Positions 34,838 to 58,488 of a DNA stretch of 64,000 nucleotides are shown here, one piece after another. The notes below the pieces were generated by a model. That model was not told the origin of the DNA, ran no database searches, and saw only the letters and a list, made by a program, of their open reading frames with translations. Within the stretch, counting starts at the first letter, position 1. Every line of letters starts with the position of its first letter. Position numbers and translations under genes: made by a program. The stretch comes from Escherichia phage TH12, in sequence record MT446390.1; one strand, 5' to 3'.

Positions 34838-34905
34838 AAATAATGATGTACAAACACCAAGGATGGTGATACTATAGACTTATCAACTACAGAGGAGTAA
34901 ACAAA

Positions 34906-51698: not shown

Positions 51699-51726
51699 TA
51701 GGGGGTCAAAATATTTTTAAAAAGTA

Positions 51727-51760
51727 GTGTACATGTTTTTAGGATATGTTATTATAGACC
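51727..51760 (+). promoter_or_regulatory. early promoter-like cassette
   Basis: GTGTAC -35-like; GTTATTATAGACCTATC shared with the cassette at 53198. Confidence 0.45.
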
Positions 51761-51794
51761 TATCAAAACGAAATGAGTAAATTTGGAGAATAAA

Positions 51795-52775
51795 ATGTTC
51801 AACGTTCAAATCAAAAAAGGTATCTATCGTAATAATGAAATCTCCGGTTCTTATGTTGCCACAAAGACATGGTTCCCAGCAAAGCTTAATCCTGAATGTT
51901 CCCACTTAGGTGACGGTAAAATTTTCGTTATGATTGATGGTTCTGAACGTGGAGTATGGGTCTTCAAATCAGACATCGTAATGGAAGGAGTTGAGACGAC
52001 ACCAGTTGCAGTTGTTGAAAGCACTGAAGATATGAAAACTCGTATCAACAAACGCTTTAAAGTAATGAACATGATGACGAATGGCATTATCGATGGCAAA
52101 ATTCGTTCACTCATTATTTCAGGTGCAGCTGGTATTGGTAAGACGTATTCTCTGGATAAAGCGCTTAATAATGCTAATGATAATGGTTTCATCAAATACA
52201 AAAGCATTAATGGTAAAATCTCTGGTATTGGCCTTTACGAACAACTTTGGCTCAACCGTGATGCAGACAGCGTTCTCTTAATCGACGATGTTGATGTATT
52301 CTCGGATATGGATATCTTGAACCTTCTTAAAGCAGCATTAGATACTGGTGATAAACGCAAAGTTTGCTGGAGCACTGCATCATCTTATCTTGATGATAAG
52401 GGTATCGATAAAGAATTTGAGTTTGAAGGTACTATTGTTTTCATTACAAACGTTGATATCGATAAAGAGTTAGAACGCGGTTCGAAACTTGCTCCGCACC
52501 TTCAAGCTTTAGTATCTCGTTCAGTGTATCTCGACCTTGGAGTACACTCTAATGAAGAGATTATGGTTCGAGTTGAAGATGTAATATTATCTACTGACAT
52601 GATGCAGAAACGTGGTCTGACGGATGCAGAAACGTATAAAGCATTGTCCTGGATGAAGGCTAACGTATCTCGTCTTCGCAATGTATCATTACGTACGGCT
52701 CTTTATGTAGCAGATTTTATTTCAACCGATAAAGATGGTTGGGAGGAAATCTCTGAAGTAACTTTACTGAAATAA
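51795..52775 (+). CDS. AAA+/P-loop ATPase
   Basis: Start at ATG 51795 (MFNVQIKKG...) after RBS TGGAGAA; Walker A ISGAAGIGKTYS, Walker B VLLIDDVDVF, sensor-1-like IVFITNVD. Confidence 0.6.
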   Translation: MFNVQIKKGIYRNNEISGSYVATKTWFPAKLNPECSHLGDGKIFVMIDGSERGVWVFKSDIVMEGVETTPVAVVESTEDMKTRINKRFKVMNMMTNGIIDGKIRSLIISGAAGIGKTYSLDKALNNANDNGFIKYKSINGKISGIGLYEQLWLNRDADSVLLIDDVDVFSDMDILNLLKAALDTGDKRKVCWSTASSYLDDKGIDKEFEFEGTIVFITNVDIDKELERGSKLAPHLQALVSRSVYLDLGVHSNEEIMVRVEDVILSTDMMQKRGLTDAETYKALSWMKANVSRLRNVSLRTALYVADFISTDKDGWEEISEVTLLK

Positions 52776-52907: not shown

Positions 52908-53195
52908 ATGGATTTTATGCAAAAAAATAAAGCCGCAGTCGAACTCTATGCTCATCGTATGGTTAGTTCTACAATGCAATATAGCGAGGAAGTTCGCCAG
53001 GACTCTTCCTTGAAAGGAAAAACTAAAGCCTTAATTACCTTAGATCGTTTGCAAAAGAATGCCATAGAGATGCTCCAGTACGACAAGAGTGTATATAAGA
53101 AAGAACAGGAAGAGAAACTTAAATCTGAAAAGTTACAGAAAACCCCGAAGTCGGTTTGGTTCAGTGGAAAAAATACTGAAAAAAGTTTCTTTTAG
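52908..53195 (+). CDS. hypothetical protein
   Basis: 95 aa ORF. Confidence 0.45.
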   Translation: MDFMQKNKAAVELYAHRMVSSTMQYSEEVRQDSSLKGKTKALITLDRLQKNAIEMLQYDKSVYKKEQEEKLKSEKLQKTPKSVWFSGKNTEKSFF

Positions 53196-53197
53196 TT

Positions 53198-53231
53198 GTT
53201 TACAAGGTCTATGGTTGTGTTATTATAGACC
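53198..53231 (+). promoter_or_regulatory. early promoter / stem-loop cassette
   Basis: GTTTAC; TATTAT; inverted repeat GGTCTAT/ATAGACC. Confidence 0.55.
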
Positions 53232-53253
53232 TATCAACTACTGGAGGTAAAAC

Positions 53254-53781
53254 ATGAACGCTAAAGATATTTTCAACCTGGTAAATTATAACGACGGTAA
53301 ATTTAAATCTGAAGCACAGAGCAAGTTCTTTAATGACGTTGCTTATGGTAACGAGATTACCGTGGATGGAGGTCAGATTTTCAAATCTCGCTGGAATTGG
53401 ATTGCTATCATCGATTCAGTTGGAATTGTGGAAGTCTACAAAAACACTAACAAAAAACGTACATTATTCTGGTCTCGTGAAACTAACGAACAGTACAAAA
53501 AGGATAAAGCATCTCGTTTATCCAAAGTAACCCAGGAAGATATCGAGTTTATCAAGAAAGATATCGAGATGTACGAAAATTTAATAGCTGAAGACCAGGC
53601 AGTACTCGATAAGTTTGATGAAATTAAAGCTTCTCGTGAAATCCCTGACTTCATGAAAGAAACAGTAAACGAACGATACGCTCTCACTTCAGAACGTATT
53701 GCAAACTATACAAAACAGAAAGCAGAACGTATTAGTACTCTTCGGAAATTTGAAGAACGTTTAAAGACGGTTCACGCATAA
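53254..53781 (+). CDS. hypothetical protein
   Basis: 175 aa ORF with RBS TGGAGGT. Confidence 0.5.
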   Translation: MNAKDIFNLVNYNDGKFKSEAQSKFFNDVAYGNEITVDGGQIFKSRWNWIAIIDSVGIVEVYKNTNKKRTLFWSRETNEQYKKDKASRLSKVTQEDIEFIKKDIEMYENLIAEDQAVLDKFDEIKASREIPDFMKETVNERYALTSERIANYTKQKAERISTLRKFEERLKTVHA

Positions 53782-53843
53782 ACGCTTTACCCAAGGACGG
53801 GTTATAATGGTTTTGAGTTCCAATTCAATCTGAGGAAATAGTT

Positions 53844-54839
53844 ATGAGCATTATATCTGATGCGGTAAAACATGAAATTAACGGTTTATGTGCTTCACAG
53901 ATTAAAGTGTGGTTTAAAGACCATAACGATCGCAGAGCACTTAATTATGAGCAAATTGCTATCCAAGTTCATCAATTACTGACTAGTAAATTTGATTTTC
54001 ATATGCCATCTGAAATCTATACTAATCTGCCACGAGCACTTATTAAAGCGTGTAAAGGTTATGGAAAATCAATGGCTGATGGAATCTTCAGCGCGCTGAA
54101 TAAACTTAACGTTCTGTCGATGATTAACTCTAACAATATCCTGCGTAATCTAGGACGTACTGATTTGTTCGGACGTGAACAGTGTAAAATGCCTTTGAAA
54201 TGGATTGTTGCTCATCTTAACGAGAACCAAACACGTTTTATGGCCGTAACAGCACGTTTACAAATGGGCTTAGATCGTCAGATGAACTTTAAAACTCATC
54301 CATGTTATTCAGGTTCAACAGACTTTTATAAATGCGAGCTTCAAAAGGTCGGTGGCAAAACTGTCTTAGTAGTTCGTGTAACGTTTGAAGGACGACGTCA
54401 AGGATATTTTGACATAATCGGCTCTGGTCTTAAACATTGTGGATTTATCAACGAAGTTGATATCAAGCGAGACAGCGTTGGATACCGTATTGGGTATGTT
54501 TGTACTCTTAAAGAAGAGATTTCAGGACCAGCACCAGGACTAAAAGACGTTAGATATAAAGACGAGCTCGTTGAAGAAATAAAAGAAGTTGAATATGATA
54601 TCAACCAAGAAGATGCTCTTAAAGACCTTATTGACGAACTAAACCAAGACGTTATTCCGGTTCAGAAATTTGAATCAAAACATGCTGAGCAAATCAAATA
54701 CTTTGAAGCTTTGATTAACGAACTTAATGTAACTATTCAACAGACTGACGATGAAATCTCACGATTAGCAGGCTTAAATGGTAAAAATAAAACAGAACGA
54801 GCTAATCTTATTCAAGTAGTAAAACTTCTTAAGGAATGA
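53844..54839 (+). CDS. hypothetical protein with C-terminal coiled coil
   Basis: 331 aa ORF with RBS TGAGGAAA. Confidence 0.5.
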   Translation: MSIISDAVKHEINGLCASQIKVWFKDHNDRRALNYEQIAIQVHQLLTSKFDFHMPSEIYTNLPRALIKACKGYGKSMADGIFSALNKLNVLSMINSNNILRNLGRTDLFGREQCKMPLKWIVAHLNENQTRFMAVTARLQMGLDRQMNFKTHPCYSGSTDFYKCELQKVGGKTVLVVRVTFEGRRQGYFDIIGSGLKHCGFINEVDIKRDSVGYRIGYVCTLKEEISGPAPGLKDVRYKDELVEEIKEVEYDINQEDALKDLIDELNQDVIPVQKFESKHAEQIKYFEALINELNVTIQQTDDEISRLAGLNGKNKTERANLIQVVKLLKE

Positions 54840-54843
54840 TGTA

Positions 54844-54868
54844 CAACCAAGGATGGTTGGAGTATAAT
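54844..54868 (+). promoter_or_regulatory. early promoter cassette (25-nt repeat copy 1)
   Basis: CAACCAAGGATGGTTGGAGTATAAT, identical to the copy at 55874-55898. Confidence 0.55.
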
Positions 54869-54894
54869 AAATTTTTCAACATGAGGAATATAAA

Positions 54895-55854
54895 ATGGCT
54901 TTTATTACACGTAGAGAACTTATCAAAGAATTTACCTCGAACGCATATACTCCAGGACCTAATCCTATCCGTATGCCTGTAAAGACTCCTGAAGAGATTG
55001 AGGAAATCTGTTCGTATTATGGGATTACTTCTCGTATGTTTACTCAATTTGAATGTGTTACTAACACGCCCGTTAAAGAGTTCATTAAAAATGGTGAGTT
55101 CAGCCGTTTATTAGCCAAACAGAAACTTCGTAATTTTTGTATTGGCGGTTGTGGACAATATTTCGCTAAGCAGTTCCGGAATAACCTTAACAATCTGATG
55201 GCCATTGCTTCTCGTATTCGTCCTCAAGCAATTAACATGAAACATTTGAAATATACTTACGATAAGTTAGAAATCATGGTTATCAGTGAGAACGAGTTCA
55301 CTCTTACGTATAAACCTAAGAATGATAACGTTGCTCGTGTATTCCACCAAGCGCTAGAAGTGTTAGGCGATAATATCCATGAGATTAAAGCAATTTATTC
55401 TCGTGAGCTTAATATTATCGACCCTATCAAGAATAAGGGCCATATCGCTATCCAGGCTCGTGTATCTATTGGTAAAAAGGTTCCTGCGCCATGGTGGCAC
55501 AAAGACTCTGAATACTATCAAAATCTTAAAAAGGAAAATGCAACGTTCGAAGGCAATATCACAGCAACACCAGTCGGTAATGCAGAGGTTCTAAGCGCAT
55601 ATTCTCCGACACAACCCGGTATGTTTAAAGGTTTGCCAAATGTGTGCAAACTGTCGGCAGTAAAACTAAATGTTTCTAATGACCTTCTTCCGGCCGAAGA
55701 TTATCATTACAACCAAATCAAGGCTACTGTAGACCAACTGTCCGTTGAACTTGACAAAGCACAAGCTAAGCTTCGTGATGCTCAAAGTGTTGTAACGAAT
55801 CTCCAGTTGCAGTACTCTAAACTTTTTAATGCAATGAATGCATTAAAATCATAA
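54895..55854 (+). CDS. hypothetical protein with C-terminal coiled coil
   Basis: 319 aa ORF; flanked on both sides by identical promoter cassettes. Confidence 0.5.
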   Translation: MAFITRRELIKEFTSNAYTPGPNPIRMPVKTPEEIEEICSYYGITSRMFTQFECVTNTPVKEFIKNGEFSRLLAKQKLRNFCIGGCGQYFAKQFRNNLNNLMAIASRIRPQAINMKHLKYTYDKLEIMVISENEFTLTYKPKNDNVARVFHQALEVLGDNIHEIKAIYSRELNIIDPIKNKGHIAIQARVSIGKKVPAPWWHKDSEYYQNLKKENATFEGNITATPVGNAEVLSAYSPTQPGMFKGLPNVCKLSAVKLNVSNDLLPAEDYHYNQIKATVDQLSVELDKAQAKLRDAQSVVTNLQLQYSKLFNAMNALKS

Positions 55855-55868
55855 AACGGTTTACAACC

Positions 55869-55898
55869 AAGGATGGTTGGAGTATAATGAATCTATCT
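55869..55898 (+). promoter_or_regulatory. early promoter cassette (25-nt repeat copy 2)
   Basis: GTTTAC at 55869 then CAACCAAGGATGGTTGGAGTATAAT. Confidence 0.6.
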
Positions 55899-55916
55899 TA
55901 ACGAGAGGAAAATATT

Positions 55917-56867
55917 ATGACACGTTCACATTACATTGAATACTTTGCCGGTCTTATCGCTAACGTTCATGCCCAGCGCGCTGTTGGTGCACTAGGATTT
56001 GATGTTCCACACCGAGATGTAGTAAGTGGTATTCTTCGCGATTTTGGTACATACACAGGTCAAGAAAATCATATCTGTAAAGATACTCAGAATGCGTATT
56101 CTCATTCATTAGGGACACTGCTTCAATGGTTCAAACGTTCTCGTTTATTATCTTCTACTGTAGCTCGCGATAACATTAAAAACTTTATGAAACCGAGCTT
56201 TATTAAATCTGTGACATCTAAAACCGATTTGGTTGAATTCACTATTGTTAATGATGTTAAAAAGACTCATTTGGCTGATTGGTTATCTACCATTCCTGAA
56301 ACTAAATTCGCTGATAAATTTGCTTGTGAATTCAATAACCAAGTGAATATGCTTTTTAAACATTCTCGTAAATTATTCACGGGCGGTGATGGTCGTACAA
56401 ATAAAGTTCATGTTAAAGATTGGGTTACTGCAGTATTCAAACCGACCGGTAATGGTAACGCATCATTATCAATTGATATCCAGGTTCCTTATTACTACTC
56501 ACGTAATCTCGGTACCATGAAAGCTGAAGAAATTAATAAGCATAACAAAACCGTTCGTTCATTGTCTTATAAACTTATTACATTGTTAGAGACTATGGAT
56601 GTTGTTGAAACGTTCGACGAATCCGAAGATAACGGTTCAATGTTATACAGTTCTCGCACCCGAATTAAGCTGAAGAACCCTAACGAGTATAAACTTAAGA
56701 CTATTAAAGAACCTAAAGTAGAAAAAGTTGACAACTTGAGCGAAGAACGTGAATATCTCAAATCTCGTCTGAAAGAAGTCGAAGCCCAGATTAAAGAACA
56801 GACTAAATCATTAAAAGCTCTGAATGCAAAAGCTGATGGTTTACGAAATGCTATTGAGGTTTTATAA
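55917..56867 (+). CDS. hypothetical protein with C-terminal coiled coil
   Basis: 316 aa ORF with RBS GAGAGGAAA. Confidence 0.5.
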   Translation: MTRSHYIEYFAGLIANVHAQRAVGALGFDVPHRDVVSGILRDFGTYTGQENHICKDTQNAYSHSLGTLLQWFKRSRLLSSTVARDNIKNFMKPSFIKSVTSKTDLVEFTIVNDVKKTHLADWLSTIPETKFADKFACEFNNQVNMLFKHSRKLFTGGDGRTNKVHVKDWVTAVFKPTGNGNASLSIDIQVPYYYSRNLGTMKAEEINKHNKTVRSLSYKLITLLETMDVVETFDESEDNGSMLYSSRTRIKLKNPNEYKLKTIKEPKVEKVDNLSEEREYLKSRLKEVEAQIKEQTKSLKALNAKADGLRNAIEVL

Positions 56868-57172
56868 TGAAACTACGTCTTTTAGAGGATATTGATATGA
56901 GCACTAATCATGGCTTGGTTAAGTTTATTGACGATAGTTCAAAGATTGAATTTGTTCAGCGAGATAAAATCCACGGTGAAGAAGAGTTCGTTCCTCCGGC
57001 ATGGAACGAAATCATGAAAATGGTTGAACGACGTGAAAATGCTGCCAAATCGGCGGCAAAACATCCATGCCCGGAATGTGGAACTATCCAAGTCCAACTG
57101 GTTAACTGGACCACTGATAACTTGAAATTGAAATGCCGTAAATGCTTCCACAAATTTGAGAGAATATTATAA
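56867..57172 (+). CDS. hypothetical Zn-ribbon protein
   Basis: 101 aa; CPECG...CRKCFHKF C-terminal four-Cys motif. Confidence 0.5.
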   Translation: MKLRLLEDIDMSTNHGLVKFIDDSSKIEFVQRDKIHGEEEFVPPAWNEIMKMVERRENAAKSAAKHPCPECGTIQVQLVNWTTDNLKLKCRKCFHKFERIL

Positions 57173-57585: not shown

Positions 57586-57841
57586 AGTGTACGGGTATGA
57601 CTCTACTATTCATAAATGCATTTATTGCGATAATGCGAAACGACTGCTGACTGTTAAGAAACAGCCATTCGAATTCATTAACGTTATGCCAGAAAAAGGT
57701 GTATTCGATGATGAGAAAATTGCTGAGCTTCTGGTTAAGCTTGGACGTGAATCACAAGTTGGATTGACTATGCCTCAAGTGTTTGCTCCTGACGGAAGTC
57801 ACATTGGTGGATTTGACCAACTACGAGAATATTTTAAATGA
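57578..57841 (+). CDS. nrdC: thioredoxin/glutaredoxin NrdC
   Basis: Start at MFKVYGYDSTIHKCIYCDNAKRLL...; near-identical to T4 NrdC. Confidence 0.9.
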   Translation: MFKVYGYDSTIHKCIYCDNAKRLLTVKKQPFEFINVMPEKGVFDDEKIAELLVKLGRESQVGLTMPQVFAPDGSHIGGFDQLREYFK

Positions 57842-58134
57842 GTATTGATTTAACTTTCCCTGGCCCTTATGACCAGAACGAATTAGAAACTTTGTTATAT
57901 CAAGAAATGTGCTCTCGTGCTAAGAACGATATTCAGTATGCTATTGATAATCCATGGGGCGAATTTCGGGTAATGATGGGTAATAGAATCATCGGTGTCC
58001 AATGGCGATTCGTTGGCCTTGAGCCTGAGGACTATGAAGAAAACGAGCATGGTGACTGGATTCCTGTTGGTGAATACCACTGGGAATACGGTGGTCCTGA
58101 CTTCGAAGTTTCCTGTGCATGGGTAGAACAATAA
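57838..58134 (+). CDS. hypothetical protein
   Basis: 98 aa ORF, ATGA overlap with nrdC. Confidence 0.45.
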   Translation: MSIDLTFPGPYDQNELETLLYQEMCSRAKNDIQYAIDNPWGEFRVMMGNRIIGVQWRFVGLEPEDYEENEHGDWIPVGEYHWEYGGPDFEVSCAWVEQ

Positions 58135-58152
58135 ACTGCGAGAATATTTTAA

Positions 58153-58488
58153 ATGAACGATATTGATTTCGCCAAAGCATATAAATTTGTAGCAACTCTT
58201 CTCGGTCCTGACGCTCCTACTAAGCTTGAAGTTTTAAATTCTATTCCGACTTCATTGGTTCGAGATGCTGAAATATGGACATGGGACGACTCGGCTGTTT
58301 GTGAAGATCTGTACATTCTGATGAATGACATGATGGTTAAAAAGCCTGAAACAATGGTTACTATTACTGTTGAAGAATATAATCGCCTGCAAGCCATTGA
58401 AGAGCTTCTGTGGAACATTGAATGTGACCTGCCGTCAGGGCTAGAATCCTGGATTGATTATGAAGAGCTCAATAAACTCCGGGGTTAA
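58153..58488 (+). CDS. hypothetical protein
   Basis: 111 aa ORF. Confidence 0.45.
   Translation: MNDIDFAKAYKFVATLLGPDAPTKLEVLNSIPTSLVRDAEIWTWDDSAVCEDLYILMNDMMVKKPETMVTITVEEYNRLQAIEELLWNIECDLPSGLESWIDYEELNKLRG

Follow-up and report, generated by a model that had tools for sequence, protein, structure and literature searches.

What are the three consecutive genes of similar length that lie between nrdC.8 and nrdC.2 in Escherichia phage TH12, and what might they do for the phage? The genes are found within a 64,000-nucleotide (nt) stretch of the record MT446390.1, referred to here as the window, and an initial annotation had described them as three effectors with unrelated N-terminal domains on a common coiled-coil tail. 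The open reading frames (ORFs) are as claimed there, namely, ORF1 (331 amino acids, aa; 53844-54839), ORF2 (319 aa; 54895-55854) and ORF3 (316 aa; 55917-56867), all on the + strand, and a GAGGAA-type Shine-Dalgarno sequence stands before each of them. The idea that the three proteins form one family with one architecture was borne out as well, and the homology goes far beyond the C-terminus. The three genes are tandem, full-length, collinear and very diverged paralogs of one superfamily, which includes T4 nrdC.3, nrdC.4, nrdC.5 and nrdC.6 and is restricted to T4-like phages. Related genera have one copy, immediately upstream of nrdC.2, and T-even phages have an array of three to four.

Pairwise BLASTP among the three ORFs gave no match (best E = 3), and profiles were therefore needed. 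Family alignments, termed F6 (ORF1), F5 (ORF2) and F34 (ORF3), were built from 105, 29 and 65 sequences, respectively, and compared with hhalign. F5 matched F34 with a score of 45.3 (E 1.5e-5), residues 89-200 against residues 134-258; F34 matched F6 with a score of 40.0 (E 1e-4); and F5 matched F6 with a score of 27.5, while reversed and column-shuffled controls reached 19.9 at most. Thus, the absence of mutual similarity noted for the N-terminal regions holds for BLASTP but not at the profile level. The alignments are collinear across most of their length and have two helical motifs in common. The first, SRLL..(K/R)N(F/Y), reads FKRSRLLSSTVARDNIKNF in ORF3, EFSRLLAKQKLRNF in ORF2 and LNVLSMINSNNILRNL in ORF1; the second, F.xN...(L/F)(M/F)..A.R(L/I), reads EFNNQVNMLFKHSRKL, QFRNNLNNLMAIASRI and HLNENQTRFMAVTARL in the same order.

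The families are also joined by intermediate sequences. An exhaustive HMMER search of 1.84 billion representatives with the F34 profile returned only 11 proteins, which indicates a small, phage-restricted family. One of these is a bridging protein, P0205, 91% identical to gp080 of Klebsiella phage Marfa (phrog_26858), and Marfa gp080 matches F34 with 96.7% probability over residues 1-230 and F5 with 96.2% probability over residues 64-315. Similarly, gp085 of Enterobacter phage IME523 matches the hidden Markov models of F6 (28 bits), F5 (36 bits) and F34 (12.6 bits), and its alignment with F6 extends across residues 145-333. In both phages the bridging gene occurs once and occupies the place of ORF3, next to the nrdC.2 homolog on its upstream side. 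With profile scores above the controls and intermediate sequences linking the families, the three are placed in one superfamily. Neighboring genes of 256-257 aa in Marfa and IME523 were tested as truncated family members and rejected. A scan of viral contigs with the nrdC.3/nrdC.4 alignment found seven loci only, and no homologs other than close Mosigvirus relatives came from a word-indexed search with ORF2 alone.

The region from 53600 to 57100 matched 515 phage records, with 98% identity to Shigella phage Shf125875 and Escherichia phage CCU7, and by this identity the window is assigned to an RB69-like T-even phage, Mosigvirus. The nrdC.x region was compared with those of T4-like phages and with the annotated T4 record, using BLASTP and phmmer. 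Judged by similarity and gene order, ORF1, ORF2 and ORF3 are the syntenic counterparts of T4 nrdC.6, nrdC.5 and nrdC.3, the order being kept between nrdC.8 and nrdC.2; in the window it reads nrdC.10, nrdC.9, nrdC.8, ORF1, ORF2, ORF3, nrdC.2, an nrdC.7-like gene and nrdC. T4 has four copies of the family, Mosigvirus is without nrdC.4 and Gaprivervirus without nrdC.3. BLASTP identity to T4 is 29% for ORF1 (E 1.6e-18), 26% for ORF2 (E 5e-12) and 56% for ORF3, the last with a weaker link to nrdC.4, of which it is a paralog. The neighbors nrdC.10, nrdC.8 and nrdC are 78%, 83% and 92% identical to T4, and the three ORFs thus diverge much faster than the genes around them.

Family membership of each ORF is clear. 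ORF1 gives a full-length profile match to phrog_2257 (E 1.1e-126) and, with its orthologous position, belongs to the NrdC.6 family; PF26899 is carried by all 108 of its 108 homologs. ORF2, assigned to phrog_2351, scores 400 bits (cut-off 30; E 1e-119) with DUF7235 (PF23882), its residues 15-318 covering profile positions 1-307; T4 NrdC.5 matches the same Pfam family, and the homologs of ORF2 have PF23882 precomputed. ORF3 matches phrog_1435 over its full length (E 5.7e-102) and, again with its orthologous position, belongs to the NrdC.3/NrdC.4 family; PF26897 is precomputed on 69/69 of its homologs, and its assignment comes through that annotation, the model being missing from the local Pfam copy. 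The three proteins do therefore sit in separate established Pfam families of unknown function, which would have spoken for unrelated proteins, but these families are related to one another. Sequence searches of the Protein Data Bank (PDB) with the F34 profile, the F6 profile and T4 NrdC.5 found no match, and no NCBIfam family was matched.

In the ORF1 family, the product of reference T4 nrdC.6 (NC_000866; locus L001, 10070-10894) has 275 aa and a frameshifted tail, and lacks the C-terminal helix. In T4T and most Tequatrovirus genomes the nrdC.6 product has 295-296 aa and the helix is present, and the short form is either a mutation of the reference strain or a sequencing error.

AlphaFold2 models of moderate quality were obtained for ORF1 (predicted local distance difference test score, pLDDT, 69.8; predicted template-modeling score, pTM, 0.56) and ORF3 (pLDDT 78.6, pTM 0.70). 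In both, a helical bundle at the N-terminus is predicted to be followed by an alpha/beta core, then by a linker of low confidence and a helix at the C-terminus. The elements come in a common order: five N-terminal helices and short strands lead to a long helix, after which a first beta-hairpin, a helix and a second beta-hairpin precede the linker and the final helix. In a search of BFVD the two models matched the same T4-like phage proteins of about 300 aa (E ~1e-5), with template-modeling (TM) scores of 0.2-0.5, and the ORF3 model also matched an F6 member, Sf25 gp220. A LAGLIDADG-like fold, a lead from the BFVD list, was discarded, since no significant structural match to LAGLIDADG endonucleases was found.

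A C-terminal heptad-repeat segment of 40-50 residues is present in all three proteins. It was evaluated with a register test, which compares hydrophobic a/d positions with 2000 shuffles. ORF2 residues 270-319 (55702-55851, + strand) have 14 of 14 hydrophobic a/d positions, a result equaled in none of the 2000 shuffles, and ORF3 residues 275-316 (56739-56864, + strand) have 10 of 12 (4/2000). The helical segment of ORF1, residues 279-331 (54678-54836, + strand), has 10 of 15 (188/2000), which is not significant by itself, and its heptad pattern is broken at GLNGKNK; AlphaFold2 places one helix of 41 residues in ORF3 (275-315) and two in ORF1 (281-308 and 314-330). The coiled-coil C-termini initially proposed for all three proteins are thus supported in ORF2 and ORF3 but weak and interrupted in ORF1. 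All families have the end motif L..A(I/L/M)..LK in common, and since it falls mainly on the hydrophobic a/d core it fits common descent and not a shared binding surface.

A promoter cassette whose spacer contains a hairpin precedes each of the three genes. The cassettes around ORF2 contain an exact repeat, TACAACCAAGGATGGTTGGAGTATAAT, at 54842-54868 and 55862-55888, with no mismatches and no chance match in 100 shuffles, which extends to 43 nt at 86% identity. Two identical copies flanking the middle gene had been reported, and identical and flanking they are, but the repeat is 27 nt and not 25 nt long, and position 55874, given for the second copy, lies inside it, 12 nt from its start. Cassette copy 1 (54840-54868, + strand) has a -35 box TGTACA, a 17-nt spacer with the hairpin CAACC-AAGGAT-GGTTG and a -10 box TATAAT; copy 2 (55860-55888, + strand) has TTTACA, with the same spacer, hairpin and -10 box. 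The copies score 10/12 and 11/12 as sigma-70 matches. A diverged third cassette upstream of ORF1 (53784-53808, + strand) shares the CCAAGGAYGG core and consists of GCTTTA, which resembles a MotA box, the hairpin ACCC-AAGGAC-GGGT and TATAAT; judged by the published consensus, the 13-nt gap between GCTTTA and TATAAT would fit a T4 middle promoter and not an early one.

This arrangement recalls a published class of elements, the promoter-early stem-loop (PeSL) cassettes of T4-type hyperplastic regions (Arbiol 2010, PMC2839356; Comeau 2014, PMC4122927), whose stem-loop lies most often between -35 and -10; the early-promoter form given for T4/PST is TTTACW-N17-TAYWAT (Comeau 2014, PMC4122927). The layout in the window is intergenic and runs from upstream stop codon through -35, stem-loop, -10 and Shine-Dalgarno sequence to ATG, with sigma-70 boxes, a 17-nt spacer and, within it, a stem of 5-6 bp and a loop of 4-6 nt. 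On these sequence features the two repeat copies are classed as early sigma-70 promoters of the PeSL type. Folding z-scores of the cassette hairpins are -1.7 and -0.5. A scan for terminators gave no hit at the cassettes, and the stem is not followed by a T-run.

Hairpins with an AAGGAY loop in a promoter spacer occur four times in the window, all on the + strand, against 0.28 expected (loop starts at 34859, 53793, 54849 and 55869), and also in T4 (L001) and the loci L011, L012 and L014, in early or middle promoters. Their stems vary yet remain complementary: 93% of cells are paired and four of five pairs show compensatory changes, which none of 500 shuffles equaled, the inner two pairs being partly fixed by the search pattern. 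At 54859-54871 and 55879-55891, a read-through RNA would carry GGAG after the hairpin, followed by the -10 box, as GGAGUAUAAUA or GGAGUAUAAUG; these match the RegB/S1 site GGAGRAYARAA (PMC1702504) at about 8-9 of 11 positions. It is tempting to speculate that RegB may cleave here and so uncouple upstream transcripts. Another pair of related cassettes, 59 nt long and 73% identical, lies at 51708-51766 and 53179-53237, upstream of the nrdC.10-like ATPase gene and of the nrdC.8 ortholog; the latter copy has an 11-bp hairpin overlapping the -10 region (-16.7 kcal/mol, z -2.3).

Among Mosigvirus genomes ORF2 is either present or cleanly absent, and the breakpoints are the identical cassettes on its two sides. 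A synthetic ORF2-deleted junction of 731 nt was made by joining window positions 54500-54868 to 55889-56250. At least 80% of it is covered by 22 records, and about 20 of these match all 731 nt as one ungapped piece at 96.4-98.4% identity, among them p000v, G2469, G2285, several AV phages, JM10/17, FL18/31, WFK, WFL6982, F2 and F27, whereas ORF2-bearing genomes match it as two halves. In p000v the homolog of ORF3 comes immediately after that of ORF1, and the one remaining cassette consists of the left flank of cassette 1, the repeat and the right flank of cassette 2; a breakpoint outside the 27-nt repeat was looked for in this phage and not seen. Homologous recombination within the repeat should yield just such a chimeric junction and would gain or lose ORF2, as described for PeSL cassettes; both loss and gain are compatible with the data. 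That the cassettes bound an exchangeable middle gene, as the initial annotation held, is thus confirmed by about 20 natural Mosigvirus genomes that are without ORF2 and have one cassette at the junction.

Copy number of the family varies from one (Marfa and IME523) through three (Mosigvirus and Gaprivervirus) to four (T4). Other remnants were observed at the homologous loci. In phage ACG-C40 (L003, 5805-6213) about the first 70 codons of nrdC.5 are joined out of frame to about the last 75 codons of nrdC.3, with nrdC.4 lost; the match of this phage to the ORF3 C-terminus had been considered as domain swapping, which was rejected because it is an out-of-frame deletion remnant. In phage Pinarejo (L013, 7001-7135), all that apparently survives of nrdC.6 is a stretch of 45 C-terminal codons within an unannotated gap, detected by tblastn match only.

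What, then, would such an array be for? The explanation that we find probable, although by no means secure, is that the paralogs are early cytoplasmic inhibitors of host anti-phage defense, each with its own target. A deletion phage could again plate on cells with the SIR2-domain protein Dsr1 when T4 nrdC.5 was supplied by itself on a plasmid (Srikant et al. 2022, PMC9391042), and the effector role attributed to the three genes from the outset is plausible by analogy with this result. ORF2, as a member of the nrdC.5 family, would be the best candidate for a Dsr1-type (SIR2 NADase) inhibitor. The context points in the same direction: the genes are accessory, variably present, fast-evolving, provided with early promoters and near reported anti-defense genes, which is circumstantial evidence. 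Directly upstream of ORF1, the nrdC.8 ortholog (175 aa; 53254-53781, + strand) is 83% identical to T4 nrdC.8, and the latter falls in the same 90%-identity cluster as bas37_0203 of phage KarlGJung, a reported inhibitor of Druantia III (preprint 10.1101/2025.11.20.689424); nrdC.1 is a reported inhibitor of Septu. In addition, gp49.2 is a reported inhibitor of OLD, and pin, in the same locus, is annotated in the T4 record as an inhibitor of the host Lon protease. Membership of bas37_0203 itself in the paralog family was considered and rejected, as it is the nrdC.8 ortholog and a neighbor only. Under this reading, transcription of the three genes would be early, from sigma-70 early promoters for ORF2 and ORF3 and from a MotA-type middle promoter for ORF1; the C-terminal helix would oligomerize each protein, as its heptad periodicity suggests, and the diverged globular part would bind the target. 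An anti-defense array with different targets is thus the most likely function by analogy, with moderate confidence for ORF2 and lower confidence for ORF1 and ORF3.

Of the alternatives, the least unlikely, though still improbable, is that the paralogs assemble, through their C-terminal helices, into one hetero-oligomeric complex with a single housekeeping or host-takeover function. Adjacent genes of similar size, each with its own promoter-like cassette and heptad helix, would suit such a complex, but a copy number that ranges from one to four across phages would not, and neither would the loss of ORF2 from about 20 otherwise near-identical genomes, the deletion in ACG-C40 from the interior of nrdC.5 through nrdC.4 into nrdC.3, or the apparent loss of nrdC.6 in Pinarejo. 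Moreover, plasmid-borne T4 nrdC.5 was sufficient alone against Dsr1. We give somewhat less credit still to the original proposal, in which three effector domains of separate origin have a coiled-coil module in common and dock by means of it on the same partner protein. It could draw on the heptad repeats and common ending of the C-terminal helices in all families and on the empty BLASTP comparison, and the nrdC.8 ortholog, whose C-terminus is helical and weakly heptad-like, could in principle be a partner. Nevertheless, the F5-F34, Marfa gp080 and IME523 gp085 alignments extend the homology across the first 250 residues, the order of the fold is the same in the models of ORF1 and ORF3, and the conserved C-terminal positions are mainly those of the hydrophobic core that common descent would preserve, so that the picture of unrelated domains on a common tail does not hold.

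It is very unlikely that mobile promoter cassettes carry the genes along as selfish or neutral cargo, of no benefit to the phage. The hyperplastic region, the recombinogenic cassettes on the flanks and the loss in some genomes are what such cargo would show; however, hundreds of genomes have the ORFs intact and at full length (653, 741 and 134 records), residues that are invariant within each family have been preserved, and a host-range phenotype has been demonstrated for one family member. Finally, it is hardly credible that the three are thioredoxin-like or ribonucleotide-reductase accessory proteins, for which the proximity of nrdC and the label 'thioredoxin' in many GenBank records could be cited, given that Pfam, NCBIfam and PHROGs show no thioredoxin or glutaredoxin domain and that no thioredoxin fold is found among the PDB matches.

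Several points nonetheless weigh against the array of defense inhibitors as we have drawn it. The argument proceeds by analogy and context; the target of ORF2, which shares only 26% identity with T4 nrdC.5, may be a different one; and nrdC.3, nrdC.4 and nrdC.6 encode early proteins that are experimentally uncharacterized. Regarding the framework of the reading, the F5-F6 link is weak in direct sequence comparison and depends on intermediates, and the predicted folds compared are those of ORF1 and ORF3. Oligomerization is suggested solely by heptad periodicity, which is not significant in ORF1, and the terminator activity described for PeSLs appears doubtful here, the stem being short and followed by no T-run.

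The genes, their Pfam families and the cassette class were already catalogued. What is new is the union of three families of unknown function in one superfamily with a known Dsr1 antagonist, together with a clean natural series of ORF2 presence and absence. Should this interpretation be right, three Pfam families of unknown function would merge into a superfamily with a proven Dsr1 antagonist, and nrdC.3, nrdC.4 and nrdC.6, with their Mosigvirus counterparts, would become candidate new anti-defense factors; these genes occur in hundreds of coliphages of the type used in therapy. The natural pairs of Mosigvirus genomes with and without ORF2, a very clean cassette-bounded gene indel, provide near-isogenic material for host-range effects. 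The analysis also corrects the widespread 'thioredoxin' label: in many deposited T-even genomes every nrdC.x gene bears it, and only nrdC itself is of the glutaredoxin/thioredoxin type. The label seems to have been propagated from the prefix of the gene name. Some Enterococcus faecalis assemblies include partial nrdC.x proteins of the T4 type, several in all, and the likely cause is contamination of these assemblies with coliphage DNA.

Two further observations concern the neighborhood. The nrdC.10 ortholog (51783-52775), with 78% identity to T4 and the Walker A motif GAAGIGKT, gives weak AAA/STAND NTPase matches that fall under the Pfam cut-offs; its listed TTG start is probably wrong, comparison with T4 making the ATG at 51795 likelier. 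Downstream, nrdC and the gene after it each have at the 3' end a copy of a 23-nt direct repeat, AACTNCGAGAATATTTTAAATGA (57819-57841 and 58134-58156, 96% identical), which spans the stop/start overlap both times.

How does the array compare with known systems? ORF1 shares gene order with T4 NrdC.6 at 29% identity and has an extra acidic insert of about 35 residues (~232-267), which is absent from the NrdC.6 of Tequatrovirus and Gaprivervirus. ORF3 shares gene order with T4 NrdC.3 at 56% identity; the nrdC.4 copy is the one missing in Mosigvirus. ORF2 and T4 NrdC.5 have in common DUF7235 from end to end, the position in the array, the length class and the C-terminal heptad helix, and differ in that, at 26% identity, the Mosigvirus form is a separate subfamily of 134 records. 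The cassettes resemble PeSLs, as described in PMC2839356 and PMC4122927, in their intergenic layout, in a promoter that fits the T4/PST form and in repeated copies that flank an accessory gene subject to insertion and deletion. They differ from them in a stem of 5-6 bp that is not G/C-rich and is followed by no T-run, and in an invariant AAGGAY loop with a covarying stem, a feature on which the consulted passages of those papers are silent. For the proteins, the nearest functional parallel may be DSAD1, the DSR2 inhibitor of the SPbeta family, which is a phage protein that binds and blocks a SIR2-domain NADase, a likeness to NrdC.5 that is one of analogy.

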